A DNA stretch of 63,852 nt from Rhynchobatus australiae (Eukaryota): NCBI GenBank assembly GCA_034780895.1, contig JAUZTB010000074.1, positions 21,188,217-21,252,068 on the forward strand. Direction: 5' to 3'. This document shows, in pieces, positions 1,670 to 62,633 of the stretch (positions are counted from its first letter, which is position 1; the number at the start of each line of letters is the position of its first letter). A program made the translations under genes and the position numbers. The notes under the pieces were generated by a model. The model worked only from the letters and a program-made list of their open reading frames with translations. It did not search any database and was not told the origin of the DNA.

Positions 1670-1930
1670 TGTCACATGAAATTAGCTAAAGCATGATATA
1701 ACATATTACCAATGGTTATACTTTAATACGCCCTGACATCATCACTATAACCATTAACTGTAACTCCTGTTAACTCTCACTCCCTATATACTGTATGCAT
1801 ATTTACACACACACATGTAGTTCATCTTGTTTGTAGTATTCTAATAAACTTCTCTTTATATCTAAATATAACTTATCCTTTAACTCTCGATGATTTTAGA
1901 TAGAACTCACCATGGCAACCACTCAGGGTT
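1670..1930 (+). repeat. Short LTR-like element (TGTCA...CCA) with PBS-like TGGCAACCACTCAGGG
   Basis: TG start, TATA-like CCTATATA (~1783), AATAAA (~1843), CA end at 1912 followed by a partial tRNA-Arg PBS match; no TSD found. Confidence 0.5.
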
Positions 1931-2630
1931 TTCTGCCCATGATGCCTTGCAAGTTGCCCCTCTTTGCCTCAGCCCTTTTTAAGTATAATCCAGAAATCAC
2001 ACCCATGACTATTTGATTGACAGAACTGGCACTTTAGATTTCTCCACCCTGTTTGTTCGATTGATAGCATAACAAAGATGTTTTGATGGAGAAAAGTTTG
2101 AGTTAAAACTTGAGAAGTCTAAAACTTGTTATTGATTGTTCCCCTGATATTCGTAATTTGTGAGCACCTGTTGTGGACAGAGCTTGACACACCAGAGTCA
2201 TCTTGTTATTTATGCAATGACCTGTGACTTTGGTGACATTGTTNNNNNNNNNNNNNNNNNNNNNNNNNNNNNNNNNNNNNNNNNNNNNNNNNNNNNNNNN
2301 NNNNNNNNNNNNNNNNNNNNNNNNNNNNNNNNNNNNNNNNNNNTCCATGGTTTCACTGTTAACCTTTATTGTTGGAGGACATTGTTACACAGCAGGTTTC
2401 CAGAAGAAAAGCTTCTGCTTGCATTAGCAAATAATTCAGTTTCCTTTCCAGCTTACAACCTGTTGGAAAGGTTCAGGCCTGACATTGAATTATGCACAAT
2501 ATCTGGGGACAGGAATTAAGTCATTTCTTTCTCTGGTCAACTTTTGCTTCACTACAGGTTATGCATTCTTGCTGAAGTCACCTGATTACAGGAGTCGACC
2601 ATGCCAACAATGGGTGCCGTGACACTTCAT
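1910..2630 (-). pseudogene. 3' ORF remnant 'orfX2' downstream of env, paralog of orfX1
   Basis: FLSPDIVHNSMSGLNLSNRL*AGKETELFANASRSFSSGNLLCNNVTKVTGHCINNKMTLVCQALSTTGAHKLRISGEQSITSFRLLKF*LKLFSIK after removing insertion 2244-2377; DNA aligns with 13370-13840. Confidence 0.45.
2244..2377. mobile_element. Short insertion (mostly gap) with 9-bp TSD GACATTGTT
   Basis: GACATTGTT at 2235-2243 and 2378-2386; the insert is absent from the paralog near 13660. Confidence 0.6.
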
Positions 2631-2660
2631 GGCATTGGTCATTTCCTGTTGGCCTTGACT

Positions 2661-5600
2661 GAATAGAAAAGAAACAGGAAAGAATTTAAACAAGGAATTA
2701 GGAGGGTGCAAAGGAGCCATGAAATGTCATTAGCGAGACAGATTAAAGAGAATCTCGAGTCATTTTATATGTGTGTAAAAGCAAGAGGGTAGCTAGGGAA
2801 AGCGTCGGTCCACTCAAGGACAAAGGAGGAAATTTATGCTTGAAGCCAANNNNNNNNNNNNNNNNNNNNNNNNNNNNNNNNNNNNNNNNNNNNNNNNNNN
2901 NNNNNNNNNNNNNNNNNNNNNNNNNNNNNNNNNNNNNNNNNNNNNNNNNGAGGAAATTTATGCTTGAAGCCAAAGGAAGTGGGCTAGGTGCATCAGTATT
3001 CATCGAGGAAAAGGACATGAATGATGGTGAGATGGGGAGAGTAATGTTGATATTCTGGGGCTTGTCAATATTGAGAAGGATGAGGTGCATCTTGAAAAGT
3101 GTTAAGGTGGATAAGTTCCTGGGCCCGATGTAATCTATCCGAGGACACCGAGGGAGGCAAGGGAAGAGATTGCTGGAGCCTTAACCAAGATCTCTCTATC
3201 CTCTTTAGCCACAGGCGAGGTCCCAGAAGACTGGAGAATAGCAAAATCTGTTCCTTTGTTTAAGAAGGACAATGGGGGATAATTCAGGAAACTGTACGCT
3301 GGTGAGCCTTACAGCAGTGGTCAGGAAATTATTAGAGAAGATTCTAAGGGACAAGATTTACTCGCCTTTGGAAAAGCATAGACTTATTTGGGATACTCAG
3401 CATGGCTTTGTGTGGGGCAAGTCCTGTCCCACAAACTTGATTGAGTTTTTTGAGGAGGTGATGGAAATGATTGATGAGGGTAGGGCAGTGGTTATTGTCT
3501 ACATGAACTTCAGTAAATCTTTTGATAAGGTCACTCATGGTAGGCTGGTCCAGAAGACTAAGCCACATGGGATCCACTGTGAGTTGATAGGTTGGATACA
3601 AAATTGGCCTGGTCATAGAAGACAGTGGTTAGTGGTGGAAGGGTGATTTCTGCCTTGAGGACTGTGTCCCACAAGGATCAGTACTGGGAGATCTGTAGTT
3701 TTCAAACAGGTTGTAATATGCATAAATGACTTGCATGAAGATATAGGTGATCTGATAAGTAAACTTGCAGATGACACACAAATTGGTGGAGTTGTGGATA
3801 GTGAGGAAGGTTGTAAGAGGACACATCAGGATATAGATTAGTTGTAAATGTGGAGAAATGGAAGATGGAGTTTAATCCAGACATGTGCGAGGTGATATAG
3901 TTTAAGAAGTCAAATGCAAGAGGAAAGTATACAGTAAATGGCAGGACCTTTAGGAGCACTGATGTACAGAGGGATTGTGGGGTACAAATCTGTAGCTCCC
4001 TGGAAGTGGCAACACAGGTGGACAGGGTAGTAAAGAAAGCATACAGCATGCTCACCTTCCTCGGTCGGGGCATTGAGTATAAAAATTGGCAATCCATGTT
4101 GCAGCTGGGCCTCTGTACCTCCCTCTGCAACTGGATCCTCGGCTTCCTTACCGGGAGACCGCAGTCAGTGCAGATCAGAAATAACATCTCCTCCTCGCTG
4201 ACGATAAACACAGGCGCACCTCAAGGATGCGTGCTTAGCCCACTGCTCTACTCTCTCTACACACATGACTGTGTAGCTAGGCACAGCTCGAACGCCATCT
4301 ATAAGTTTGCCAATAACACCACTGTTGTTGGCAGAATCTCAGATGGTGACGAGGAGGTGTACAGGAGTGAGAGAGATCGGCTGGTTGAGTGGTGTCGCAA
4401 CAACAACCTCACACTCAATGTCAGCAAGACCAAGGAATTGATTGTGGACTTCAGGAAGGGGAAGTCAGGAGAATACACACCAGTCTTCATTGAGGGGTCA
4501 ATGGTGGAAAAGGTGAGCAGCTTTAAGTTCTTGGGTGTCAACATCACCTGGGCCCAACACATCGATGCAATCATAAAAGAAGGCTTGCCAGTGGTCCTAA
4601 TTCATTAGGAGTATGTGGAGATTTAGTTTGCCACCAAATTTCTATCGATGTATAGTGGAGAGCATTCTGACTGGTTGCATCACAGCCTGGTATAGAAGCT
4701 CTAATGCACAGGATTGCGAGAAGCTGCAGAGGGTTGTAGACTCAGCCAGCTCCATTAAGGGCACAACACTCCCCACCATCGAGGACCCCTTCAAGAGGCA
4801 GTGCTTCAAGAAGGTGGCATCCATCATTAGGGACCCTCACTATCCGGGTCATACCCTCTTCTCATTACTACCACAGGGGAGGAGGTACAGGATCCTGAGG
4901 ACCCACACTCAACAATTCAGGAACAGCTTCTTCCCTTCTGCCATCAGATTTCTGAACAGTCCATGAATCCATAAACACTACCTCATTGTTCCTTTTTCTT
5001 GCACTATTTATTTGTTTTATTATTTATACATTTTTATGTCTTTGCACTGTACTGCTGCTGCAAAACAACAAATTTCACATCATATAAGATAGTGATAATA
5101 ATTCTGATTCTGATTCTAAAGATGAGAAGGGGGAAAGTTTAAAGAAAATTTGCAAGGCAAGTTTTTGATACAGAGAGTGGTGGGTGCCTGGAACACACTA
5201 TAGGGAGGTGATAGAAGCAGGCATAAAAGCAATGTTTAAGAGACATTAGGACTGTTACGGACTAGGACTATTAGTGAGTGTTCCTTTAAGATAGTGTGTG
5301 TGCGTGTGTGTGGCGTGCNNNNNNNNNNNNNNNNNNNNNNNNNNNNNNNNNNNNNNNNNNNNNNNNNNNNNNNNNNNNNNNNNNNNNNNNNNNNNNNNNN
5401 NNNNNNNNNNNNNNNNNNGTCTTTAGTCTTGCACTGTACTGCTGCCACAAAACAACACATTTCACAACATATGTCAGTGATAATAAACCTGATTCTGGTT
5501 CTCTCTTCCGATTCTGTATACAACTTTGGTTGGACCACATTTGGAGTACTGTGTGCAGTCGCCACACTGCAAGAAGAATGTGAAGGCTTTGGAGAGAATA

Positions 5601-6055
5601 CAGAAGAGATTCCCCAGAATGTTGCCTGGATTGTATAGTATTAGCTATAAGGAGAGGTTGGACAAACTTGGTTTGCTTTCTCTGGAGCGTCAGCTGAGGG
5701 GTGAGCTGGCAGAAGTATATAAAATTATAAGGAGCATAGACAGGGTAGATAGAGTCTTGTTCCCAGGGTGGTTATGTCAAATACTGGAGGGCATAGCTTT
5801 GAATGAGAGGGAGAAAGTTTAAAGGAGATTTGCAAGGTAAGCTTTTTTTTTTACGCAGAGAGTGGTGGATGCCTGGAACACACTGACAGGGGAAGAGGTA
5901 GAAGCAGATGCAATAGCAACGTTTAACAGGCATTCAAATAGCTACATGGACAGGCAGGAAACAGAAGCATACGGACCATGGGCAGGCTGATGGGATGAGT
6001 TCGACTGGCATTGTGGTCAGCACAGATCATGGAGTTAATGGCCTTATGTTCTTGC
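2661..6055 (+). mobile_element. CR1 LINE (5'-truncated) between env and orfX2, with nested Rex1
   Basis: VSLTAVVRKLLEKILRDKI, QHGFVWGKSCPTNLIEFFEEV, MNFSKSFDKV, PHLEYCVQ; CR1 3' UTR. Confidence 0.92.
4105..5117 (+). mobile_element. Rex1/Babar-type LINE 3' part
   Basis: [16 protein letters not shown]...[21 protein letters not shown]...[11 protein letters not shown]; (ATTCTG)n tail; a second similar tail at 5419-5515. Confidence 0.9.
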
Positions 6056-6059
6056 TGAG

Positions 6060-7873
6060 TCAGAGCCTCACCATTAACTGCTGCTTCCTCTTTTGCTGTC
6101 GTTCTTTCTTCATTGATGGCTGATGACAAAGACCTAGCTGATTACAACCAGTACCTAACTAACAATTCGTACTTAAGGATTTATCTCGTGTCATTCCCCC
6201 AATTCCACACATGATGACACCATGAAGTGATTCTGATGTTTCGTACATCTTGACCTACTTCATCTTGTCTTTGTTTTGATTCCCAACTACACGCTCTGTG
6301 GCATCAAGATCATTTAGCAGCTTGTTTATTTAATGGACCTAAGGCTCAAGCAGGTCAATATCATATCCAAAGTTGTTAACATGTTCCTCCAGGTTTAAAT
6401 TGGACAATTGATCATATATATTGATAATCATTTCTTTTCCATGGTGTAAGGATTATAGGATTTGGTGTTCTATCGATGCTCATTAAGATGGCACAGTACA
6501 AAAAGATTGGGGCATAACTGGACATGCAGGTTATTTTCATAGGTGAAAGATTTTTACAGTTGTGGTTACACAGTACATCCTACTCCACAGTAGGCTGAAT
6601 GAACAATACCATACCTCTTGTTGTATGTTACATTGTACAGTTTGGCCTCCTTCCAGAGAATCCGCATGTAGGTTCTCCATGTAGTCTGCATGGAGGGAAT
6701 ACAGTTTTCCTTACCTGTTGACAACCCACAGGGTCTGTGAAACTCTCCCTGTACACTTCAATCACTGATATATTAAAAAATTGCAAAGGAAGCGTTATCT
6801 GCTTCTGTTACTTTTGTGTTCTGTTTAATGAATATCCAACACTTTTCACTCTAAATATGAGATATTTGCAATGAGTCAGANNNNNNNNNNNNNNNNNNNN
6901 NNNNNNNNNNNNNNNNNNNNNNNNNNNNNNNNNNNNNNNNNNNNNNNNNNNNNNNNNNNNNNNNNNNNNNNNNNNNNNNNNNNNNNNNNNNNNNNNNNNN
7001 NNNNNNNNNNNNNNNNNNNNNNNNNNNNNNNNNNNNNNNNNNNNNNNNNNNNNNNNNNNNNNNNNNNNNNNNNNNNNNNNNNNNNNNNNNNNNNNNNNNN
7101 NNNNNNNNNNNNNNNNNNNNNNNNNNNNNNNNNNNNNNNNNNNNNNNNNNNNNNNNNNNNNNNNNNNNNNNNNNNNNNNNNNNNNNNNNNNNNNNNNNNN
7201 NNNNNNNNNNNNNNNNNNNNNNNNNNNNNNNNNNNNNNNNNNNNNNNNNNNNNNNNNNNNNNNNNNNNNNNNNNNNNNNNNNNNNNNNNNNNNNNNNNNN
7301 NNNNNNNNNNNNNNNNNNNNNNNNNNNNNNNNNNNNCTCCATTTTTATTTGATATGTTGTTGTAATGTGATGGTTCATTTCATACTTACCAATGCTCATT
7401 CCTGCTACTTTGTCTCCAAATGCACGATTCTTCCAATGAGAACCTCCCCCTTATTGTTTATTTCAATTCACTATACTATACCAGAATGGATGGTTTCATA
7501 CAATCTCACAGTTGCTGCAGATTCCACCTTCAGCTTTCTCACACAAGATCTTTCCGGGATTGGTATGGGCAGTAGTATATCAGTGGCACTTCATAATTTA
7601 AGTTCTGTACACTGATAGTTGTCCGTGGATGATTCAAAATGATACAAACCTATTTCCTCTTCTTTACCTCTGCTGTGAGTGCTGAAGCCAGCTTTCCCTT
7701 CCCCGGGGCTGACACCACTGTTAAAAGGACATGTAAAATGCAACATTTTTGAGTATGTTCCACCTTTCGCCACTCTCCCCTGGTAGGTGATAAGCTGATG
7801 AACACTAATCAGCTTCAGCAGTCGCAATCTAACCCTACACAATTGCCAAAAGAGGCACTGTGGCCCTCTCCAC
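6060..7873 (-). pseudogene. env: env remnant: signal peptide, Cys-rich ectodomain, heptad, Trp-rich membrane-proximal region, TM, basic tail
   Basis: VERATVPLLAIV*G*IATAEA; GC..C..EPTCGFSG..PNCTM; AYCGVG-YCVTTT; CPVMPQSFC; INKLLNDLD..QDEVGQDVRNI; SWCHHVWNWG; VRIVS*VLVVI; KKERQQKRKQQLMVRL*. The middle (6881-7336) is a gap. Confidence 0.75.
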
Positions 7874-7879
7874 TCTTCT

Positions 7880-7905
7880 CTGCAGAAATAAAACTTTAAA
7901 AATTA
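7880..7905 (-). promoter_or_regulatory. Candidate env splice acceptor
   Basis: TTTTTAAAGTTTTATTTCTGCAG| between the integrase end and the env signal peptide. Confidence 0.5.
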
Positions 7906-7919
7906 TATAATCTAGGCTA

Positions 7920-9130
7920 TACACATCTGGTGAAATTAACTGTTTGTTTATTTGCAAGACTTATATATGGTTGCCTTGCATATATGACTTCTAAATTCAT
8001 ATCTCCTGTCGTTCTCTGAGAGGGTCGGGCTGATACTGGTGCCATTGCTGCCTGAGGAACATTCTGTTCCTCTACAATCCTCCATTTCACCATGCTAACA
8101 CTGATAACAGTTCTTTTCATTCTCTCTTCTTTCTGATGAGATTTATATAGTTTCATCTGTCTGATGCGGAACCGTTATACCTTTTTGGGTAGTTGAACAG
8201 AATAAACCGTTTGACCTGTTCTTTTCACAATATTGTATGGTCCTCTTATAAAGTGGATCAAGTACTTCTACCTGAACATAATTCCTCACAATCATCTGGT
8301 CTCCAGTGTCCCATTTTTGTGGCTTATGTGGTTCTAAATTCATTTTATTTGTTTAATTTTTTTTGCCAATATTCCCTGCATCTCATTTATAAAGCGCCTC
8401 CAACTTTTTTGTTCGATAGATCTGTCCCAAGTTAGTTCTTTCTCCTGTCTTTCAGCCAGAGTATGTAAAAGTACCGGTCTCATTCACTTGTTATGTAGAT
8501 ATCCTGTCGTACTGGATGTTCATTAACACTTGTTGTGGGATCTCATCCCAATTTTTCTTCCTTTCCTAAGCTTTCTTTTATCATTCTATTCATACGCTCA
8601 ATAATTCCTGATGATCATGGATTATGTCTTAAATACCACTTCCTTTTTATTATCAACAGCTTCAAGGTTGCTTGAGAAACCTATCCCTAATCTGATTCCA
8701 CAGACCTCAGTAGTTCCCATCAAGGAAAGATTTGTGTCACTGATGTCTTAGCTGTGGCTGGAGCTGTAGCTGCCAACCACTGAAATGCTTCAACCGATTT
8801 CATGTAAAGTTATCCATCAAAACGAGATAATAATGCATTTCCCCTGCTGTATGTTGGAAGAGGTCCAATAAAACCTACCTGCGCTACCAGAGCCTTTCTG
8901 ATCTTCAGGTGTGCCCTAGGGCTGCTTTCCTCTTTTGTAGGTCTGGATTATGAGCTGCACAGATCAGAGAACCGTGACAAAAATCCTTCACATCATCTTT
9001 TTGAAGAGGACACGATCCCACTGCACTGACTCTCTTCCCCATTTGCTCTGAACCAGGATGTTCTAATCCTGGCCCCCTCTGTACCAGTTAAAGGAAGTCT
9101 CCCCTCAGGGTTGTGGGAACCACCCTTTTA
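7920..9130 (-). pseudogene. pol: Integrase remnant (HHCC, DDE core, GPY/F C-terminal domain)
   Basis: EHPG...DVKDFCHGSLICAAHNP; QVGFIGPLP; VEAF...SVESD*G; HNP*SSGIIERMNRMIKESL; GPYNIVKRTGQTVYSVQLP. Confidence 0.92.
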
Positions 9131-9334
9131 TTAAACAGCATTCCTTCTTATATTTGTGCTTCAGGTCTTCAACAGGATTCCTCAACGGTTTCGTCCACTT
9201 CCCAAAATGCCAGGTATGTTTTATGCATTTCCAGGCGATCACCAACTCCTACTGGCCCCACTGCTATTATTGTCATTACTTAGCTCCGGTTCTTTCCCTG
9301 AGTTCCCAAGGCATCCCTTCCAAGGCACATGTTC

Positions 9335-10230
9335 TCACTAATGTCCACTTTCCTATTACCTTCCCATCTCAGCTCTATTTCAGAATGAGTTTTCAATTTC
9401 TGTATTCAATAATCATGTTTCCCTGCATTACTACTGAATTCCGACAGAATTGACTGCAACACTGGGCCACTCAGAAGTGGTTTTCCATCTGCTGATTTAA
9501 ATCCTTGCATTTCCTAGAAAACCAGAAACTCGACAGACAAACACAGAGGCTGAACAGATGGTGCTGGGTGAATCACTTCATATTCAACAGCACCCGGTTC
9601 TGCCTGTTGTGTACTCAGATGACCTGGTAATTTCAGTGATGTCCCTACCTCATTACTTGGATCCTAATTTTCAGTAGTGTTCATCTTTCTCCCTCTTTCA
9701 TGTAATTGAATCCCTCCACAAAGGTACCTCTCTCCGTCAATAAACACCATTCTCAAATCCTTCTATATCCCATACTCCTCCTACTGATGTTTCTCTATGA
9801 ACCCCATGTCTGCTGCCAGGGTTGGGTGATTCAATAATTCTACCTTCAGATCACATGACCCCAGCAACACAATGCCCCTACTAAAGGTGGGACTGGACAC
9901 AGTCCCTTCTTCAATGCTTTGTTGCAATTACCAACAACATTGTCAGGGTATGCTCAGTTCCCATGGTTACTCTACTAGTTCCCATAAAAGCAGCAAATTG
10001 CTTCTTTGTCCAATAATTAGCCAATGAATATATTTCACAAAATGATATGTCATTTCTTTTGTAGATAAGGTCCAAGAGCCATATGCTGTTGGTCTAAGTT
10101 TCCCAGGAGTTAATTGTAACAGTGCTGCACTCGCACTAGCTTCTGCAGCTACACATTCTGGCCAGAAACCCTGTGTGGGATCTCTTGTTCCCAGTGCTGG
10201 AGATGTCTGCATTTTTTTCTTGAGTGTATG
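9335..10230 (-). pseudogene. pol: Tether (degenerate RNase H) plus second, retroviral-type RNase H
   Basis: Tether SPALGTRDPTQGF...SAALLQ...LRPTAYGSWTLS; RNase H MVFIDG, STQQAE, GFKSADGKPL, KLKTHS...EGNRKVD. Confidence 0.85.
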
Positions 10231-11100
10231 GGAAACTTTCCCACATTCCTCTGGCCACTCCCATTCAGCTGTACTTCCCTGTAATGCATACAAAGGTCTA
10301 GCCATATCTACATAATCCAACATAAACTCACAGCAATACCCCGCAAGTTCCAGGAATGATCAATACCTCATCCTCAAGTATTTGTAGCTTGGTAGCTCCT
10401 GTACTGATTTCCTTTTGACCTTAATTATGCTCTACTCTTCTTAACATGGGTGTTAAAAATTGTACTTCCCTATCTGGGCCCTGTTAAGGGTTATCTTTAG
10501 CCCAGATTTTGCTAGAAGCTGCAACAATCTCTGAAGCAACAGTCAGTCATGTTTGCAAAGAGTAACAGGTCAGCTACATGCTGAATCAGCTTCTCTCTGA
10601 TGGAATACAGATGGGCCATTATGGAATCCTTGTGGGAGACAAACCCAGGCATACTGCTGCCCCTTAAAGTTAAAGGCAAATTTGTATTTATCTTTTTGTC
10701 CTCATTGGAATAGACCAAAACCCATTAGAGATATCCAGCATCGTGTCCACTGCTATAGACCTTGGTTAAATCTACCATAGCAGCAATTGTAGGGACACAT
10801 GCTGGAACATTTTTGTTTGATATTCTATAAATAATTGTCATTCTCCATGAACCATTCAGTTCCCTATTGGTGAGTTTATGTGTGTTGCCAGACCTCCAAT
10901 AGCCCCTTAGTCTATGAGTATTGCTATCTGTGAATTTCTTCGTTTCTTTAGAGAAAGTTCATTGTCTTTGTGGCACTTTGAAAGGCTTTCCCTCTGCTGT
11001 CACCACTGGACTCAGTATTCTCCTGCTGTCCTGTTGGTGTTGGCAAATGCCACCCTCTCCTGCTCTAGAATGGCTCTATTCCACTCAGGACTTCTTTTCA
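10230..11100 (-). pseudogene. pol: Reverse transcriptase remnant
   Basis: NGSWRMTIIYR, LDISNGFWSIP, KYKFAFNFKGQQYAWVCLPQGFHNGPSVFHQ, LIQHVADLLLF (decayed YVDD at ~10569-10580). Confidence 0.93.
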
Positions 11101-11149: not shown

Positions 11150-11554
11150 TGTCCTTGCCCATCCAGTGGAATATACTGCTTTTCACTGCCCTCCCATAAG
11201 CAATGATTTACTAAACCTATCACAAAGCCATTTACTTCCATATAGTTTGACCTCGTCCTCACCCCAGTTCATTAGTATGCATACTTACACGGTCTCGTGT
11301 GGCTCCACTTGTACACAGAGAGGTTTTGACACTGCCACAGCCATAGTAATCACTGTAAATCCTCCCAAAACACGGGGTTTGATGTGGGACCATATAGATC
11401 TTAATGGGTCTCTCCTGTCAAACAATGTATGCGCTGCCCCTGTATCTACCTGATATTCCTCTTGCCCTCCTTTTACAATCACACACATAATCAGTCTTCC
11501 TTGGCTATCATACCTGAGTGGGCACAGGCTTGTCAGCTGGATGTTATGGCCCCA
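11150..11554 (-). pseudogene. pro: Aspartic protease remnant
   Basis: CPLRYDSQGRL...VKGGQEEYQVDTGAAHT (DTG at 11438-11446), flap-like VLGGFT. Confidence 0.88.
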
Positions 11555-11942: not shown

Positions 11943-12843
11943 TGTCATGTGTAAATCAGCAAGTTTGTAATCAGTTTAAAATAGTGAAGTTATGCATTAA
12001 TTTATTAACTTTTTGTGATATGTGCACTAACATTGTATAAAAAACACTAGTGCGGTTAAGGTTAATTTGTTAAGTAGCTTAATTAAAGCTGGTTACTATT
12101 GTGATCTGTCATGTGACAGGAAGCACTTGTTACATAAGAAGTTGTTTTATCATGTGTATAAAAGGAGATTTTCCATAGATAAGGAGGACTTGTCACAATG
12201 TTGATCGAGAGCAAACTCACAGAGAACCCAAATGCAGCACACCAATACAAGACTGGAGTCAGGATNNNNNNNNNNNNNNNNNNNNNNNNNNNNNNNNNNN
12301 NNNNNNNNNNNNNNNNNNNNNNNNNNNNNNNNNNNNNNNNNNNNNNNNNNNNNNNNNNNNNNNNNTGTATCGTTATGCAATGAGTCCAACATGGAATCCA
12401 TGTGCTGGACAACAAGGCATTAAAGGAGACAAACTGAGGCCATAACTCAGAACCATGACAGGACTTCCCTTTGGACCGGGGTTGTCTGTGATGACAATAG
12501 TTTTAAAACTGAGAAAACACTCTTAAATTCAATGTTGCTGGGAGTCCCTGAAAGTAGATGTGAGAACACTCTTTTGTTTGGGAATAGTTTGTTTCTTTGA
12601 TTACTTGAGCAGACTTTCCTGTTAAGCCATTGTCATGAGAGGTGTCAAGAGCTATTGAAGACTCCAATGTTTGCCGTTGCCAGGGGTCTCCACAAGCAGA
12701 AGGGCTATGAGAGTTGTGTTTACCTTAGTACAGAAAACTCTTTCCCCCATGTTAATAATTGCTTAATAAAACAATTTTTGAACACGTTGAGAGGATCGGA
12801 ACCATATTATAATACACCAGCGTTTTGCAAAACTCTTCCCTCA
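11943..12843 (+). repeat. Solo-LTR-like insertion in gag
   Basis: TGTCA start, TATAAAA 12157, AATAAA 12765, ...CCTCA end; gag frame roughly rejoins across it (QKLVVL/HREAG); TSD unclear. Confidence 0.6.
12191..12460. repeat. Solo LTR nested in the above, 5-bp TSD GGACT
   Basis: GGACT|TGTCA...TGACA|GGACT. Confidence 0.85.
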
Positions 12844-13369
12844 GCACAACCAATTTCTGTAATGTGTGAGCCTCTGTCATGCCTAGTTCTCTCAGATCAA
12901 GTGCTGACATAGCTGCATTAACAATAGTGTCTGTGAAAGCAAAGAGGCCACCTAATCAACTGCAGAGGTTGTCTCCAGTCAATTAATGTTGGTCCAATGC
13001 TTCTCCTTGAAATTTCAATGTCAATAGGCTGTAATCTATTTACAAATGCTTCTGAGTGTTCCTCCTTCTGATGTTTATTTTGTACCATAGTTTTAAACCG
13101 ATCACCTGTCCAGTGTGCACAAGCAAACCTAACATATCGCTCAGTTACCTTGGGCTGGGTACACTCTGTTGCGGGGTAATCCAGCTAACACTGCCCCATC
13201 AGAACTGAAAAGCAGCCTCATTGAAATCCAGCATTTTAGTGATCTTTTTGGAATGCAAATGGTGACCTTCCACATCTCCTCCCTGTGCAAGGGCTCCCAG
13301 ATCTCTGGCAGTTTCCTTTAATTGTGAAGGATTATAAATGTCACCGTAAGTTAACACCACTTGTTCTCA

Positions 13370-13899
13370 CCGATCTAAGGGAGTTCCTTTTAAGCTTTCT
13401 CTCTGGCTTTATCCATCATTTGCACAAAACACACTCTTTCTTTTGAGCCCCTGTCATAGCATAAATCACACCTGTCTCTGTAACTTCCACTACAGCCATT
13501 CAATCTCTCCCTCACGCACCTTGATGGAGAAAAATTTGAGTTTACCAGCAATCTAAGACTCATTAATGGGTATTTCCCCGGATATTCGCACATGCAGACA
13601 CCTGTTGAGGACAGACACCAGATTCATCTTGCTGTTTTTGCGATGAATTGTTACTTTGGTGTCATTGTCACATTGTAGGGTTCCAGAAGAAAAGCCTGTG
13701 CTTGCATAAACAAATACTTTAGGGTTTCCAGCTTTCAGCCTGCTTGAAAAATTCAGACTGACACTGAATTACCCAGAATATCTAGGTGGAAGAACTGCAT
13801 TCATATTTTTGTTTTATTGATCAGTTTTTCGTTCACCATGAGCTGAAGGAGCTGACAAAATCCCACTGAAGGGACCACATATAGTAGCCTAACAAACAT
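13370..13899 (-). pseudogene. Leader ORF remnant 'orfX1' upstream of gag (unknown, glycoprotein-like)
   Basis: MFVRLLYVVPSVGFCQLLQLMVNEKLINK...LNFSSRLKAG...LQCDNDTKVTIHR...RISGE...KLKFFSIK; hydrophobic N-terminus, NxS/T sequons; paralogous to 1910-2630. Confidence 0.45.
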
Positions 13900-14159
13900 G
13901 AGAATCCCATTCCTTTTTAACAGTTTCTGCACAATATACATTCATGTTACAAATGGAATGCTAAGAACTTAACAACTGCTCATTCTGTTTTTGCATTCTC
14001 AAGCAATCCTGTCACCAGTAAAAGAGTTTCGTGCCTGAGTATAATCCACTGCAGAACATAAAGTGGATTAAGATCACACTCCATACTTGACCCTTCTATC
14101 TGTTAATTTAAATGGACAGAAAACTCGGCAGATTCTTTAGTGCCACATGATCCTCTGCT

Positions 14160-14181
14160 CAGTCTTCATGGGTCACACCCA
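14160..14181 (-). promoter_or_regulatory. Degenerate primer-binding site, possibly tRNA-Arg
   Basis: TGGGTGTGACCCATGAAGAC versus tRNA-Arg PBS TGGCGACCACGAAGGGAC; differences include CpG-type decay and indels. Confidence 0.3.
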
Positions 14182-14191
14182 AATAATCCAA

Positions 14192-14400
14192 TGTAGCTGG
14201 ATGCAGAAACAAGACAATCTCCCCCGAGTAATCGAAGGAAAAAAAGACGCTAAAGCCAGATCACTTCACAGGGGGTAAGCTTCCAACTGATAATTTTGAT
14301 TATGGCCTACTCTCATCTCGAAAAACAACCCTAGTTGTAATGAAACTGTCTGTCAGCTTTTACAATGAGTTTAAGCATGAGTTTAAGCAGGGTCAAAGTG
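14192..14400 (-). repeat. Candidate 5' LTR (R/U5 end) of the ERV
   Basis: Minus strand has a degenerate polyA signal and T-rich U5, ends ...CATCCAGCTACA and is followed by a PBS-like sequence; 12-bp tandem ATGAGTTTAAGC x2 near 14365-14388; upstream boundary unclear. Confidence 0.5.
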
Positions 14401-14624
14401 TTATGGAAACAGCAGTTCAGGTCATCATTAAGTGGCCAAATTAATTAAACTTATTCACTTTAAATTACAGAGTGGCTATCAGCATAGTCATTAATGGGCT
14501 GCATAAGTCAGCAATCCCAATTAAAAGATAGCAGTGGGCACTTTGTCCTATTGCACTTTCCATCATACCCAGAGAGAGAAAAGAATGAACTGGAGAAGAA
14601 TCCAGCAAATTCACTCAACTAAAA

Positions 14625-15073
14625 TGGAGATACAAGAGAAGATGTTGGAATCGGAAGCAAAAGAAATCTGCTGGAGGAACTCAGCGGATCAGGCAGCATC
14701 TGAGTAGGCAAAAGTATGGGCGACATTTCATGTTGAGACCCTGCATCAGGACGAAGAGTGTAGAGGGAAGATAGTATAAATAAAGTGAAAGGGGGGATGC
14801 CTAATTATATTTTCCTCATCTGTTTCCATCTATCACCCATCAGCCTCTTTCTCTAAACTACCCCTCCCCCACCTGACACCATCTGCCCATCATCCCCCAC
14901 CTCACCTGGTTCCACCTATCACCTACCTGCCCCTGCTTCACCCCTCCCTCTCATCTCTTTGTACTGCTTATCTTCCCCCTTTACATCAGCTATCCCTTTG
15001 CCTCCACGGATACTGCTTAATGGGCACGGATACTGCTTAATGGGCTAAGTTCCTCTAGCAGTTTGTTTTTTTG
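14625..15073. mobile_element. Penelope-derived inverted-repeat element
   Basis: CTGGAGGAACTCAGCGGATCAGGCAGCATC arm and its reverse complement; TSD CACTCAACT(A/G)AAA at 14612-14624 and 15074-15086. Confidence 0.75.
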
Positions 15074-16602: not shown

Positions 16603-17637
16603 CTGCATTTTTAGAGAAATACCCATCCCCATCCAGCGTCTCAGTCTACAACCAAATCTGCTCCTCTTCAACTGTGGCCACCTATGAAATACTCACATAT
16701 CCATGGCCTCTGTGTGTTAGCAAATCTATGTACATCAATATCTCTTTTTCAGAATAATCTCAGGGTGTTAAAAGCAGCTAAATCAATTTGTATAAACTTT
16801 ATAGAAGACTTTGGAAAAGGGATTTAGAATTTGCAAGATCTGTTTCAAACTATCTTCTGCAACCAGTGTTCCCCCAGATCATAGGTCACATGGGTGACTG
16901 TGCCAAACCATCGGTATGGAAGTCTTAGTTCATCTTATTACCAAACAGAATGTCAATATTGATTATACATTAGTAAATTATAATGCTTTTAGTAAAAAGT
17001 GATAAAACATTTCATTATAGATATATTTGCACCGACTTGCTTATAGATAGCAAATGAATTGAGACATGGCAGTAAATTCTAGTGTTATTTTTCATAAACA
17101 CTGTCATTTTTAAAATTGCTGAAAGCTTATTATTTTTCCCAAGAAACTGCATCCTATATTTCTTTTGTCCACTAAAGTTCTTTCACACATTTCACTTGTA
17201 TAGTCAAATAGTCTACTCCTGAAGAATAGCTTGACAAAGAGTACACTGGATTTCACCATGAGAAACTTATAGCACACAATGATGGCCTCAAGTGTAAAGC
17301 TCGAGAATTCATTGTCCAAAACCACTTCCCTTGCTTCAGTGGGTGGATGGATTCTGAAATTTATTAACAAATTTAATTGTAAAAAAAGTATGTTCAAAAT
17401 CTGAACATAAAGTATCCATGATAATAATGTCCAAGGCATGAAGATCACTTGACAGAATGGTACATGTTTTAAAATAAGAAGCAATTTGAAAAATACCAAT
17501 TTGATAAAAATATTTTAAGGGAAAAGGTATATTTTATATTTGCACATGGATTCATAGCATTAAGGAAAACTGGACTGGAAGATCACAATTCATTAGTTTC
17601 GTCTGCAGTTGAAAACACATAGCTTTGAAAAGCATAC

Positions 17638-17728
17638 CTTTCTCTTGAGTCAAAAAGCCATCTCTCCAGCAGTTCTGTCACATCAGTCCAGCACTTGGAG
17701 ATACAACAGATGCATCTGACATACCACT
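17638..17728 (-). CDS. Host exon ((E)WYVRCICCISKCWTDVTELLERWLFDSRE-R)
   Basis: CTCTCCTGACTAG| acceptor (an internal CTCCAAG acceptor is also possible), AAG|GTATGC donor; phase 2 end matches exon 16509-16602. Confidence 0.65.
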
Positions 17729-20438
17729 CTAGTCAGGAGAGATAGCTTCTTAATAATTAGGCTTGGTCACATTAATCTCCTGCTTTCTGATATGATATTC
17801 ATCAGGAAGATTTTTGACGCAGCACTGAGACTCACGGTAACACAGTAACCAAGAGGAGATATTATTTTCCATTTCTGTGGCCATTTCTTATTAAATGTTC
17901 CCAATTTGGATTCAGAGGACAACGAATTCCCATTCCCATTTCTAACATTCAGTATTAGTCTGAAAGTCAAACCAAACGAAAAGATAATTGTTACACATTC
18001 TTGTGAGAACTTTAAATGCAGTACTCCGAGGTACAGATTGAATAGCCTTATTCACAGTGTAAGAAGCACATCTCTGAATCTCAGCTCTTCAGACTTTTGT
18101 GCTGCAGAATTTTCATTTTGGGATTCAAACATTTCCCTTAAAGCTGGATCATTCAATGTAAACTTTATTGAGTTATGGGCCTTCTACATCTACCATCAGT
18201 TTCACCAATGTGAATAAACAAATGTATTAAAATACTAGCTTAAAACTTTTTTCTTATATTTTGGTAAAGAATACATTGGGAGAATTTAAGGCATCTTGAA
18301 TTTTCTGTGCCGTGTGAAACAACTTGTTTACACGAGTCAATAAGAATGAATGAACAAGGGTCACAACTGACTTCCCATTTGCTTGTCTTTTCCCTCTTTC
18401 TTTCAGAGAAATAATTGACTCTGCTCAAAACAGCGCAATAGAGCTTGGGAGCTCAGCAACTGATGACCAACATCCCCACTACTCTAATATGCCCCATTTT
18501 GTTACCAATAGACATTTTAAATATTCAATCGCACTGTTCTGTTTCTTACAGAATTGTTCACATTTTGTTTCCTGAAGTGAAATGCAACCCATACAAGTGG
18601 AAATGTGATTTGACGATGAGGTAAAAAAAAGATCTAGGACTTTGGTGAATGAATTGCGAACAGTTTAGTTAACCAATGCGATTTAAGACAGAGGAAGAAA
18701 AAGACTTTAACCTGAAACATTAACTGCTTTCTCTGATCTCTCTTTCCACAGATAACAACTGACCTGCTGAATGTTACCAACAGTTTCTGTTTTCATTTCA
18801 GATCTCCAGCATCTGCCATTTTTAAAAACTTTTATTTCGAAACAAGAACCTGGAAAGTGGGCTGAATTTGGCCAATTGTACATCAGTGGAATAATTTCAC
18901 AATAAAACGGAAAGTACTAAAAACAAAGGCAGTAATTTTCACTTAAAATCAATGTCCTCCTAAATTCCAAAAAAAAATCATTTTGTCTGATAGGTTACGT
19001 GCATCATTTTCATAGCAACAATGCCATTGCATTATTGATATGTAACAGCCCATTTTCTTGGAGCTGCACAATTTGTTGCATGCCCCTCTAGTTCATTTTC
19101 ATTTCCATATTTTTGCAGCAATTGAAAATGCAATTTAACAATGAGGGCAATGGGGATCTAGGACTCTTCATCCATTCTTTCTCTCTCTGTTTTTCTTTCA
19201 CTGCCTCTCTGCTTTATTTTCTTTGGCTTTCCCGTTCTTAAANNNNNNNNNNNNNNNNNNNNNNNNNNNNNNNNNNNNNNNNNNNNNNNNNNNNNNNNNN
19301 NNNNNNNNNNNNNNNNNNNNNNNNNNNNNNNNNNNNNNNNNNNNNNNNNNNNNNNNNNNNNNNNNNNNNNNNNNNNNNNNNNNNNNNNNNNNNNNNNNNN
19401 NNNNNNNNNNNNNNNNNNNNNNNNNNNNNNNNNNNNNNCCTGTTCAATCTTTCCCTGTAACTCAACTCCTGAAGACCCGGCAACATTCTAGTAAATCTCT
19501 TCTGCACTCTTTCAAACTTACTGACATCCTTCCTATCCATGCAGGGTTTTGATCCGAAGCGTTGACAATTCATTTCCCCACACAGATGCTGTTCGACCTG
19601 CTGAGTTCTTCCAGCAGATTGTTACTTAATATAGGAACATAAATCTGGTCATTATAAGGGCCTGCGTGTCATTAAGTACCAACCAAACTTTCTGAAGTGA
19701 CTTCAATTCACTTTAAGGTCATAAATGTGGGAATACTTGAAGACTGGAGAGGGTAAGGTGAAGCTGCTGATTTTGTGGCGCTAAGAGAGGAGCAATGGAA
19801 GTCATCCAACAATGAGAAACTCACAACTCACAGCATTTCTTTTCCTCAACTCAAACCATTGATTATGTACATTTAACTTGACATTATTCACCCAGAAATT
19901 TTGCAGCCAGTAGATTCATGAAACAAAGTAATTCAAATCATTGCTCAGTTTGATTAAAGACATTCATTTTCAGACTATGTGCTTCAAAGGAATCTGACAC
20001 CTGCACCTTAATTAAGCACACAAAGTAGCTAAAAAATCCAGTTGATGGCAAGTGGATAATAGAATCTAAGAGCTTTGGCCTGTTCAGTGGTGAGAGTGTC
20101 TGCTGCTGACCCCAGTTCAGAGCAGATGTGAACTATTGATTTTTCAATAGTTTCCAGTTGATGATTCAAAGTCATATTTTGTCTAAAAATTTGAATTAAG
20201 CTAGGTGAAAAGCCGTGCAGATGGAAATTTAGTGCTAAAAATGAATTAACGTGTAATTTGACTTAAATAACATTACATCAAGAATAGAGTGTATCCACAA
20301 AGGAAGGAGGACATGCTCATTCTCAAGATCAAAAGAGGTTGAGCAGTTCATATATGAATAACTGCTACCAGGTTTCCCACTGTGTAGGACATTTTTTGCA
20401 TGAATGATTTGTGCAATTCAGTACTGAGATGCTGAGGC

Positions 20439-43691: not shown

Positions 43692-44371
43692 AGAGTGGAG
43701 TCACAGGTAGACAGGGTGGTGAAGACAACTTTTGGCAGGCTGGCCTTCATCAGTCAGGGCATTAAGCATAGAAGTTGGGAGGAAATGTTGCAGTTGTACA
43801 AGACACTGGTGAGGCTGCACTTGGAGTATTGTGTTCAGTTTTGGTCACCCTGCTATAGAAAAAATATTATTAAACTGGAAAGAGTAAAGAAAAGATTTAC
43901 AAGGACTTTGCCAGGAATCGAGGGACTGAGTTATAGGAAGAGGTTGGACAAGCTAGGACTTTTTTCCTTGAAGTGTAGGAGACTAAGAGGTGATCTTGAA
44001 GAAGTGTATAAAATCATGAAGGGCATCGATGGTGTGAATGCACTCAGTCTTCTTCCCAGGATTGGGGAATCAAGAACTAGGGGGCATAGGTTTAAGGTGA
44101 AAGGGGAAAGATTTACTAGGAATATGAGGGGCAACTTTTTTCTTTTTTTACACAGAGGGTGGTCTGTATATGGAATGAACTGCCAGAAGAAGTTGAGGCA
44201 GGTACAATAACAACCTTTAAAAAACAATTGGACAGGTACATGGATAGGAAAGGTTTTGAAGGTTATGGGCCAAACACAGGCAGGTGGGACTAGCTTGGAT
44301 GGAGCACCATGGCCGGCCTGGACCAGTTGGGCCCTAGGACCTGATTCCATGTTGTATGACTCTATGACTCT
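43692..44371 (+). mobile_element. CR1 LINE 3' fragment (relatively young)
   Basis: 171-aa ORF with LVRLHLEYCVQFWSP...TRGHRFKV; (TGACTCTA)n tail. Confidence 0.93.
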
Positions 44372-58639: not shown

Positions 58640-60848
58640 AAGTAAGTGGGAAAGATGTGAGTTAGAAGAAAGAACAAAATAAAACAGAATGTTATTCAAA
58701 GAGAGAAACCAGAGACTGGTGCAGTTCAGAGCGATCTGGGTATCATTGTATATGAAACAAAATTAGCATGCAGGTACAGCAACTAATTAGGAAGACCTTT
58801 ATTGGATGTTAGCTATCATTACAAGGAGGATTGCATGCAAAAGTAGGGGCGACTTGCTACAACTTTACAGCACATTAGTTAGACCACACCTGGAGTATAG
58901 TATACAGATTTGGTCAGTTCAGAAAATGTTCACTGGGATGAACAGGAAGTCTTCTGAGGAACGATTAAGGAGGCAGGGCCTATACTCATTAGATTTTAGA
59001 AGAATAAGAGGTGATTTTATTGAAACGTTATTTACTGAGGAAAGTTGACAAGCTGGAATCTGAGATTACGTTCCCTCTCATGGGAAACCCAGAAGCAGGG
59101 GGCAGTTTCTGAATGAGGGATCACCCTTTCCCTCAGAGCATTGTAAATCCTCGGAGTTCTCCACCCAAGAGAGTTGTGGAGGTGGAGTCACTGAATACAT
59201 TCAAGACCAACGTGATAGATTTTGGGGCCAAAGAAGAGCCAAGAGTTGCCGGGGAATCAGGGTGTAAAGTGAAGTTGAGGCCATGATTAGATCAGTCATG
59301 ATGTTAACGAATGGCAGCATGGGTTTCGGAGCTGTAAGACCTGCCTCTTTTCCTAGGTCTTATGTGTTTATGATCTTAAGGGCAATGAAAACATGCCACA
59401 GTATTATTGATAATTACACTTCAGGTTTCCTTAGCAAACCAGCATATAGTTAAAATTCCAAACTTTAACCTCATGAGTTTAATAACTACAGATTTAGTCA
59501 GTCATGCTAAATGAGTGTAATGGTATCACTCTTACACATTCAGTTCCATTGACAACATACAACTGAGCCCACAACTAGAGCACTGCAAGCAGCTTTATTC
59601 CCCTGTTTAAGACACTACTTCACTGGAGGTGGCCCAAACGTTCACCAGGATGATCTCGGGTTTGGGGAAACTGTCCTGTAAAGAAAGGTTAAAAATGTTG
59701 GGAATCTACTCATTGAAGTATAAACTGATGAGAGGCAAATGTAGGTGCCTAGATTTGGTAAATGGTCAGAGATGTTTCCTGCTCTCTTAGAGAGAGAGCA
59801 GGCTCGTTTAAGATGAGGTGTTTTCTCTGATCAGAGAGCTGTGGGGGTGAGAGAGTTCTTGGGTACACTTAAGGCAGGCATAGATAAACTTTTAATCAAG
59901 CAGTCTGAGGAAAAGGCAGGAGTTTGAAGAAAAGGAATTGGTGGTGTTGTGGGTGTCTAAGGCTACAGCAAGATACAGACCAAATGGAAAGTTGGGCAGA
60001 GTATTGGCAGATGGAATTTAATCCAACATGCATCAGGTGATGCAGTTGGAAAGTTAAATATGGCTAGGACATATGCAGTAAATAGTAGAGCATTAAAGAA
60101 TGTTGATGAATAAAGGGACCTAGGGTTTCAAGTACATAGTTTTCTGAAAGTGGTAACACAGATAGGGTGGTGAAGAAGGCATATGGCATGCTTGCCTTCA
60201 TAGGCCAGGGGATAGAATATAAAAGTTGGGATGTTTCATTGCAGCTTTACAAAACGCTGCTTAGGCTGCATACAGTTCTGGTCGACACACAATAGGAAGG
60301 ATCTGGCTGTGTTGAAGAGAGTGCAGAAGAGATTCACCAGGGTGTTGCCTAGATTGGAGGTCTTTAGTTATTGGGAAAGATTGGATTGACTACGTTTGTT
60401 TTCTCTGGAACAAAGGGGGCGACCTGATGGAGTTATGTAAAATTATAAAAGGCACAATATTTTTCCCATGACAGGGGTATTAAAAACAAGCGGGCAAAGG
60501 CTTAAGGTTAGAGGAAGGAGCTTTAAAGGGGATTTGAGGGGAAAGTGTTTTTTTTATAGACAGAGAGCGCTTGATGTCTGGATCTCACTGTCAGAGGAGG
60601 TGGTGTAATCTCTATTTTTAAGAGAAAGACACTTAAATAGGCAAGGCATAGAAGGAGATGAACCTAACATGGGAAAATGGGATTAATGTAGGTGGGCAAA
60701 ACAGTCGCCATGGAAGCGGTGGGTCAAAGGGCCTGTTTCTGTGCTGTACAACTCCATGACTAGGAGGACTTGTGGAATATCAGATCAGCAATGATCCGAT
60801 AGCATATTTGAGAAGTTGAAGGACCAGTTCCTGTTCTTAGTTCTTATG
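58640..60848 (+). mobile_element. Cluster of CR1 3' fragments (58640-59378; 59630-60848 with nested younger copy ~59935-60762)
   Basis: LVRPHLEYSIQIWS, WQMEFNP, RVQKRFTRVLP; CR1 tails. Confidence 0.85.
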
Positions 60849-62065: not shown

Positions 62066-62633
62066 AGAGAATCAGATATATTATCACTGACTTATATGAT
62101 GTGAAATTTGTTGTTTTGTGGCAGCAGTACAGTGTAAAGACAAACAATGATGTAGTATTCATATACCATTCAGAAATCTGATGGCAGAGTGGAAGCTGTC
62201 ACTGAATCATTGAGTGTGGGTCTTCAGGCTCCTGTACCCCCTCTCTGATGGTAATAACAAGAAGAGGGCATGTCTCAGATGGTGAGGGTCCTTAGTGATG
62301 GATGCCACATTCTTGAGGCACTGTCTCTTGACTTCCTTGAAGACTTCCTCAATGGTGGGGAGGGTTGTGCCCATTATGGAACTGGCAGAGTCTACAACCC
62401 TCTGCAGCCGCTTGCAATCCTGTGTATCGGAGCCTCCATACCAGGCGGTGATGCAACCAGTCAGAATGCTCTCCACCGTACATCTATAGAATGTTGCAAA
62501 GAGTCTTTGGTGATGTACTAAATCTCAAATTCCTAATGAGATAGAGCCACTGGCGGGCCTTCCTCATGATTGCATCAATGTGTTGGGCCCACGACAGATC
62601 CTCCAAGATGTTGATGCCCAAGTCCTTGAAGCT
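62066..62633 (-). mobile_element. Rex1/Babar LINE 3' fragment
   Basis: ESILTGCITAWYGG...LQRVVDSASSIMGTTLP; same family as 4500-5117. Confidence 0.9.

Follow-up and report, generated by a model that had tools for sequence, protein, structure and literature searches.

The minus strand of the analysed window, a 63,852-nucleotide stretch of DNA from Rhynchobatus australiae, carries an old, decayed retrovirus, and the remains of its gag, pol and env genes lie between two copies of a direct repeat, copy A at gag and copy B behind env. Of the single readings of this repeat, the likeliest, as judged from the sequence, is that it had a coding, glycoprotein-like origin. In the form that we propose, a small glycoprotein-like domain would have been carried twice by the virus, with its 5' copy at the place of the matrix, and would have been duplicated or homogenised shortly before integration. 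We assign this proposal a probability of about 0.45, a weight that, like those of the competing readings, is a judgement and was not computed. The initial annotation of this DNA had described two paralogous, glycoprotein-like accessory genes around the core; the coding origin is retained as the leading reading, whereas old paralogues under purifying selection are excluded. The coordinates of all features are collected in Table 1, and statements attributed to cited papers refer to excerpts of those papers.

Table 1. Features of the decayed provirus and of the repeat pair, in minus-strand order (positions are those of the window)
Feature	Position	Strand	Remarks
Putative 5' LTR end and PBS, unconfirmed	14150..14640	-	Proposed in the initial annotation
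Met-led hydrophobic stretch, signal-peptide-like	13837..13899	-	Outside the repeat; frame of the 5' part of copy A
Copy A, repeat core	13521..13836	-	Shared frame of ~105 codons with 2 stops and 4 sequons
Purine-rich, virus-like stretch after copy A	13313..13520	-	Faint in-frame likeness to the stretch after copy B
Capsid-like part of gag	12921..13381	-	MHR-like motif EHSEAFVNR at 13061
Insert in gag, probably non-viral, with 100-N gap	11960..12900	.	Composition unlike pol/env; limits approximate
Protease	11290..11490	-	DTG motif at 11446
Reverse transcriptase and tether	10013..10978	-	Broken by stops and frame changes
Integrase remains	8200..9200	-	Weak Pfam matches and motifs by eye
Env-like region, 456-N gap inside	6060..8150	-	Ends in a transmembrane-like segment near 6150
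Nested LINE fragment block between env and copy B	2657..6038	+	RVT_1 matches
Stretch between LINE block and copy B	2553..2656	-	ATG at 2642
Copy B, first block	2380..2552	-	Alignment to copy A
Later insertion in copy B, mostly assembly gap	2244..2378	.	9-nt duplication at both ends
Copy B, second block	2083..2242	-	Alignment to copy A
Stretch after copy B	1875..2082	-	Virus-like composition; weak hydrophobic segment, then basic residues, in the frame of copy B

Copy A aligns with copy B in two blocks, 13663-13836 with 2380-2552 (71.9% identity, E 1.5e-24) and 13521-13668 with 2083-2242 (72.7% identity, E 2e-22), and the alignment score was reached by 0 of 200 shuffles. The direct repeats of roughly 70-75% identity that had been noticed by eye at 13520-13840 and 2080-2556 are thus confirmed. 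The insert that separates the two blocks in copy B consists of 100 N and about 35 nt, and is bracketed by the duplication at 2235-2243 and 2378-2386. Mismatches were found in 57 of 271 gap-free columns, and five of the seven indels of the pairwise alignment are not multiples of three; the shared minus-strand peptide described earlier exists, but not in one clean frame. No third copy was found within the 64-kb window by similarity and nhmmer searches, and a suggestion, made by eye, of a further copy between integrase and env was not supported by search.

The edges of the repeat are sharp. Continuation beyond them at 78% identity was rejected by a pair-HMM (log2 odds -33.6 downstream and -10.5 upstream), and continuation at 52% identity was marginal (25/300 downstream, 28/300 upstream). 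The weaker similarity said in the initial annotation to continue to about 13370 and 1910 was reached at the DNA level by 27 of 1000 shuffles, and the in-frame protein pair that continues both copies downstream by 18 of 1000; against the ERV interior, 10 of 1000 random frames were as good, and the corresponding DNA-level values were 33/1000 and 0/1000. When the extension was anchored at the repeat edge, however, it was equalled in 706/1000 cases for 60 nt and in 70/1000 for 230 nt, so that the similarity of the stretches downstream of A and B is at most a hint. The composition of 1783-2082, past copy B, is virus-like (likelihood ratio 4.4-4.9, with 6-9% of the background as high), and this character extends about 300 nt beyond the copy; that of copy A is less pol/env-like than its neighbours (likelihood ratio 0.19-0.52). 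A purine-rich 12-mer lies on the minus strand within 40 nt after each copy (13504-13515 and 2039-2050), polypurine-tract-like but on the wrong side for LTRs.

Between the two copies, the gag remains include a stretch at 13381 that we take to be capsid-start-like. Together with the MHR-like motif, this likeness is the basis for calling 12921-13381 capsid-like. The E, F and R of EHSEAFVNR stand at the spacing of the MHR pattern, with Q one position off (PMC8278194, excerpt), and the motif resembles that of Ovex1 as matched by eye (PMC2717909, excerpt). No capsid profile or structure match was obtained for the gag stretch in Pfam, PDB or the Atlas. The minus strand of 13150-12930 weakly matched the NSP15 endoribonuclease of coronaviruses in Pfam (E 0.14; 12.6 bits against a cutoff of 23.9), which was taken as chance. 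Within the probable insert in gag, the likelihood ratio of the composition is 0.00-0.02 for 11960-12669 and 0.21-0.70 for 12601-12900, and no other copy of it was found in the window. The MHR-like motif lies 153 codons from the edge of copy A and 279 codons from the Met at 13899. Since class III Gags have their MHR farther in, at positions 238-257 in XtERV-S and 281-300 in ERV-L (table in PMC8278194), copy A lies where the N-terminal half of gag, or the matrix, should be; it is probably not the free gene before gag that had been proposed.

The best PDB matches of the reverse transcriptase were to the MLV-type enzyme (E 1.6e-11), foamy virus (2.5e-9) and Ty3 (0.007), with no SnRV-clade reverse transcriptase among the hits, and the reverse transcriptase and tether matched Pfam RT_RNaseH_2 (3.4e-7). 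Searches among 1113 and 223 candidates gave no relatives for a tree. The integrase gave weak Pfam matches (Integrase_H2C2, 0.028; SH3_Tf2-1, 0.005) and no PDB match. No Pfam or PDB support was found for the env-like region, including Pfam Fusion_gly, and an Atlas search with its N-terminal stretch gave no informative match; its transmembrane-like segment has a KD of 2.55. About 600 nt (7520-8150) lie between the integrase and the Loki-like start of env. In the LINE block, RVT_1 was matched at 3242-3643 (3e-6) and 4090-4605 (4e-12), and a fragment spanning about 4100 to 5120 sits within a second one. Further copies of both fragments, presumably CR1/L2, occur at 43700-44250, 60000-60600 and 62070-62590. 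A 7-mer at 2650 and 6039 may be the target duplication of the block. As the block is a later insertion between env and copy B, copy B directly followed env. Elsewhere, at 17110-18217, several open frames of 93-134 codons occur in unique sequence and without Pfam match; a host exon or a decayed element is possible.

By eye, pol resembles those of snakehead-retrovirus-like shark ERVs rather than those of epsilonretroviruses. Its reverse transcriptase and integrase motifs, among them LDISNGFWSIP, KFAF and LPQGFHN, closely match, again by eye, lineage I of the elephant-shark CmiERVs, which belongs to the SnRV clade of class III (PMC4422223, excerpt), and they fit that lineage better than the one lokiretroviral Pol compared. 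In the excerpt of the same paper, lineage I lacks a repeat of this kind, and its env looks gamma-type by eye. The env-like region of the window is F-protein-like in its C-terminal cysteine spacing and heptad region, by eye, and the provirus is possibly a recombinant.

In the proposed frame, the comparison of A with B over 85 gap-free codons gave a pS of 0.200, a pN of 0.212 and a dN/dS of 1.07. Differences are not in excess at third codon positions (16/91, against 25/90 and 16/90 at the other two), and in a permutation test of codon constraint 1564 of 2000 permutations were as low or lower. The two copies have thus diverged neutrally, and the codon-level constraint (dN/dS below 1) anticipated in the initial annotation was not seen in this one pairwise comparison. 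A dN/dS of 1.07 argues against old paralogues under purifying selection and is still compatible with copies that were identical at integration; old paralogues with a conserved core were likewise rejected, the synonymous difference being only 0.20. In ten segments of pol, framed by motif and by eye, 9 frame switches were counted, and the stops number 6 over 408 codons, against 5.9 expected for a decay of 0.115 changes per site, values from 0.05 to above 0.2 being possible. The A/B difference of about 21% is about twice this decay, the estimate of which is wide, and hence A and B were probably identical or nearly so at integration.

Identity at integration is also what a pair of LTRs would show. 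Copies A and B may be the 5' and 3' LTRs (about 316 nt) of the provirus, with the open frame due to chance or to an LTR ORF and the 5' part of gag deleted, a reading that we consider somewhat unlikely but serious. Direct repeats flank gag-pol-env, in the same orientation and close to gag and env once the LINE block is discounted, and they have sharp edges and neutral substitutions at about twice the internal decay (itself 0.05 to above 0.2), as the 21% difference and the pol stops would have it for LTRs. From the nine frame switches over some 1,240 nt of pol, about four would be expected for the two copies, and five were seen. Both copies carry CA at the 3' edge and copy B has TG near its 5' edge, the 5' edge of A being ambiguous (by eye); no other LTR pair occurs in the window, and the prior of the LTR reading is high. 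Against this stand several missing hallmarks. Before B, in 2553-2700, no stretch of 12 nt reached 11 purines with 4 G, a site at which an SnRV-like shark element is also weak by eye (PMC4422223, excerpt); no target duplication is visible by eye at the flanks of A and B; AATAAA was found by hexamer scan only at the 5' end of A and not in B; and no TGG directly follows the terminal CA of A (by eye). Decay can erase each of these hallmarks, so that their absence is not decisive. The LTR pair would further require that at least 85 gag codons and the leader were lost, with primer site, leader and matrix largely deleted, and it gives no account of the Met-led hydrophobic start, of the virus-like stretch past B or of the faint extension. 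A tandem provirus, in which A would be the 3' end of an upstream element, was rejected because the flanks do not match at the identity of the repeat.

A separate LTR end with a PBS-like site had been placed at 14160-14192 in the initial annotation. It found no backing: 14150-14660 has no LTR-level partner in 1-1900 (10 of 300 shuffles equalled the best local score; nhmmer E 0.051), and neither AATAAA/ATTAAA nor TATA occurs on the minus strand of 14190-14640. At 14151-14160, ten bases may be similar to the initiator-Met tRNA at its 3' end. Scans of the window for Rfam families and tRNAs gave nothing. A faint same-strand likeness between 14349-14530 and 507-710 has the right orientation but falls short of what an LTR pair as old as this should show. 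A GQxxS pattern at 14092, in the main frame of A, is of the myristoylation type according to the table of PMC8278194.

The signs of coding are each modest. The shared frame has the fewest stops of the six, with 0 and 2 in 85 aligned codons against totals of 4-13 elsewhere; over the whole repeat, A and B contain 2 stops each. An open frame of this kind is common, given that 7572 of 17765 random 237-nt pieces contain a frame with at most one stop; the observed openness arose in 21-33% of non-coding simulations and in 82% of those from a stop-free source. In the second block two pairs of indels offset each other, and one frame is therefore kept in both copies for about 78 codons. The several NxS/T sequons reported earlier were recovered, four in copy A and three in copy B, two of them at aligned positions. 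When 4000 pairs were simulated from host-side sequence, 11 had at least three sequons in the most open frame of both copies; this value overstates the case, because the three minus frames of A hold 3, 2 and 3 sequons, not specific to one frame, and local composition supplies part of them. The coding features were partly picked, and several supporting tests chosen, after inspection of the sequence, and were discounted accordingly.

The hydrophobic N-terminus attributed to the 5' copy was also found, Met-led at 13899 with a KD of 1.72 over 15 aa, but it lies in another frame than the main peptide of A, the offset being near 13757. Such a Met-led stretch in any of three frames was present in 42 of 3000 random 124-nt pieces. 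Before copy B (2553-2656) there is no clear hydrophobic leader, the best KD being 1.07 in another frame; the ATG at 2642 shares the frame of the first matched codons of B, with 2 stops between. A hydrophobic stretch at 2660-2720, considered as a signal peptide of B, proved to be the antisense of the LINE. Anchor-like segments reach a KD of 1.05 in A (other frame) and 1.26 in B (in frame), against 2.55 for the env anchor. The main frame of A is that of the stretch at 13381, with 4 stops in the 46 codons between (13519 to 13382).

Taken together, a domain carried twice is favoured by the open shared frame, the sequons, the leader of A, the in-frame extension, the virus-like composition past B, the spacing to gag and the lack of a polypurine run before B. 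It is opposed by the dN/dS of 1.07 and the lack of a third-position excess, by the sharp edges and the LTR-like position, by the composition of A and by the leaderless B, as well as by an extension that fails the anchored tests, by the lack of a separate 5' LTR partner and of any homologue, and by a model pLDDT of 37.

In a further reading, only copy A would have been coding, as the 5' part of gag or its leader, and copy B would be a never-functional, one-off copy that aberrant reverse transcription had placed behind env in this provirus or its immediate parent. Sharp edges and neutrality, an inherited open frame with sequons and a leader on A only, the room for gag and the missing LTR hallmarks would all follow. 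We hold this to be unlikely, though still a serious rival: B has an in-frame ATG at 2642 near the end of env and an in-frame hydrophobic-then-basic segment, the faint downstream similarity would have to be chance, and a rare event is needed together with a 3' LTR that is lost or off the window. A bolder and improbable reading is a matrix-less Gag of type I topology, in which a signal peptide, a glycosylated ectodomain and an anchor would precede the capsid, with a truncated copy of this 5' module (ectodomain, anchor and capsid-like start) expressed separately behind env as a decoy or accessory glycoprotein. If instead an unrelated dispersed repeat had inserted twice, or a host duplication had occurred, the copies bracketing the provirus by chance would agree with the neutral divergence, the sharp edges and the at least three other insertions that the provirus took, but are highly improbable, with only two copies in 64 kb, both in the same orientation and adjoining viral genes, and no target duplication around either (by eye).

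In the proposal that we prefer, A and B would both have decayed from a single small extracellular domain of about 105 codons, N-glycosylated and probably beta-rich. Copy A would have stood at the 5' end, behind a signal-peptide-like leader and in the matrix position, as a fusion with gag or immediately before a gag that was shortened, and copy B within a 3' open reading frame beginning at the end of env. Template switching by the reverse transcriptase may have duplicated or homogenised the domain shortly before integration, and the copies would then have entered the host genome nearly identical and decayed neutrally. By analogy with MLV glycosylated Gag, the product might have been an accessory glycoprotein, displayed on the surface or secreted, with a role in host attachment or immunity.

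In the MLV protein, the 5' end of gag is extended by a glycosylated part that bears a signal (PMC5120145, excerpt). It is of type II, has a CUG start, keeps the matrix and has no copy after env, whereas here the leader looks N-terminal and the matrix seems absent. In MMTV (sag), HIV (nef) and foamy viruses (bel2), a U3 ORF stands before gag and after env and is identical in both places at integration; here, by contrast, the frame would continue right up to the repeat's end, and no LTR hallmarks were found. The walleye epsilonretroviruses WDSV and WEHV carry accessory ORFs on both sides of the core, as is proposed here. Their paralogues are cyclin-like and both lie 3' of env, the 5' ORF being unrelated to them. 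The pieces of A and B gave no Pfam cyclin match, and with pol motifs that by eye are not epsilon-like, the likeness to epsilonretroviruses once suggested for this arrangement is not supported; the walleye ORFs encode accessory proteins (PMC12193657, excerpt). According to the same excerpt, SnRV has small accessory ORFs and a 205-codon 3'ORF that overlaps the end of env, a position like that of copy B, but this ORF is described there as Tat-like or cis-acting and not as a glycoprotein, with no mention of a 5' paralogue. Lokiretroviruses have an F-protein-like Env with similar cysteine spacing, by eye, and some of them an extra 5' smc gene, which is coiled-coil and not duplicated; the one Loki Pol compared has PFG where the window has LPQG, and one cartilaginous-fish row records these viruses in 0 of 3 Orectolobiformes genomes (all from an excerpt of PMC7947760).

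No family had been recognised for the segment, and none emerged. A word search found no homologue among 50 candidates at E 0.1, PDB and Pfam yielded none, and a HMMER profile run against 1.84 billion representatives had one match, a repetitive cadherin of 2623 aa (45.9 bits over five stretches) that was rejected as a repeat artefact. The AlphaFold model of the segment, mostly strands in its core, has a pLDDT of 37.1 and a pTM of 0.26, and the best hit of a viral fold search with it (E 0.12) is meaningless at that model confidence. The same libraries also missed the reverse transcriptase and may hold few animal ERV proteins, so that the absence of matches says little on novelty. Among open-access papers, no report of such twin segments across a retroviral core was found.

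If the copies are a pair of LTRs, the finding is an ordinary one, yet it gives an age and limits to an old provirus that is SnRV-like and has an F-protein-like env. If they are coding, they would represent a retroviral accessory domain that has no homologue in a set of 1.84 billion representatives and that was present twice, with the whole core between its copies. It might also have replaced the matrix, and would then be relevant to the way in which Gag was anchored to membranes in early vertebrate retroviruses.
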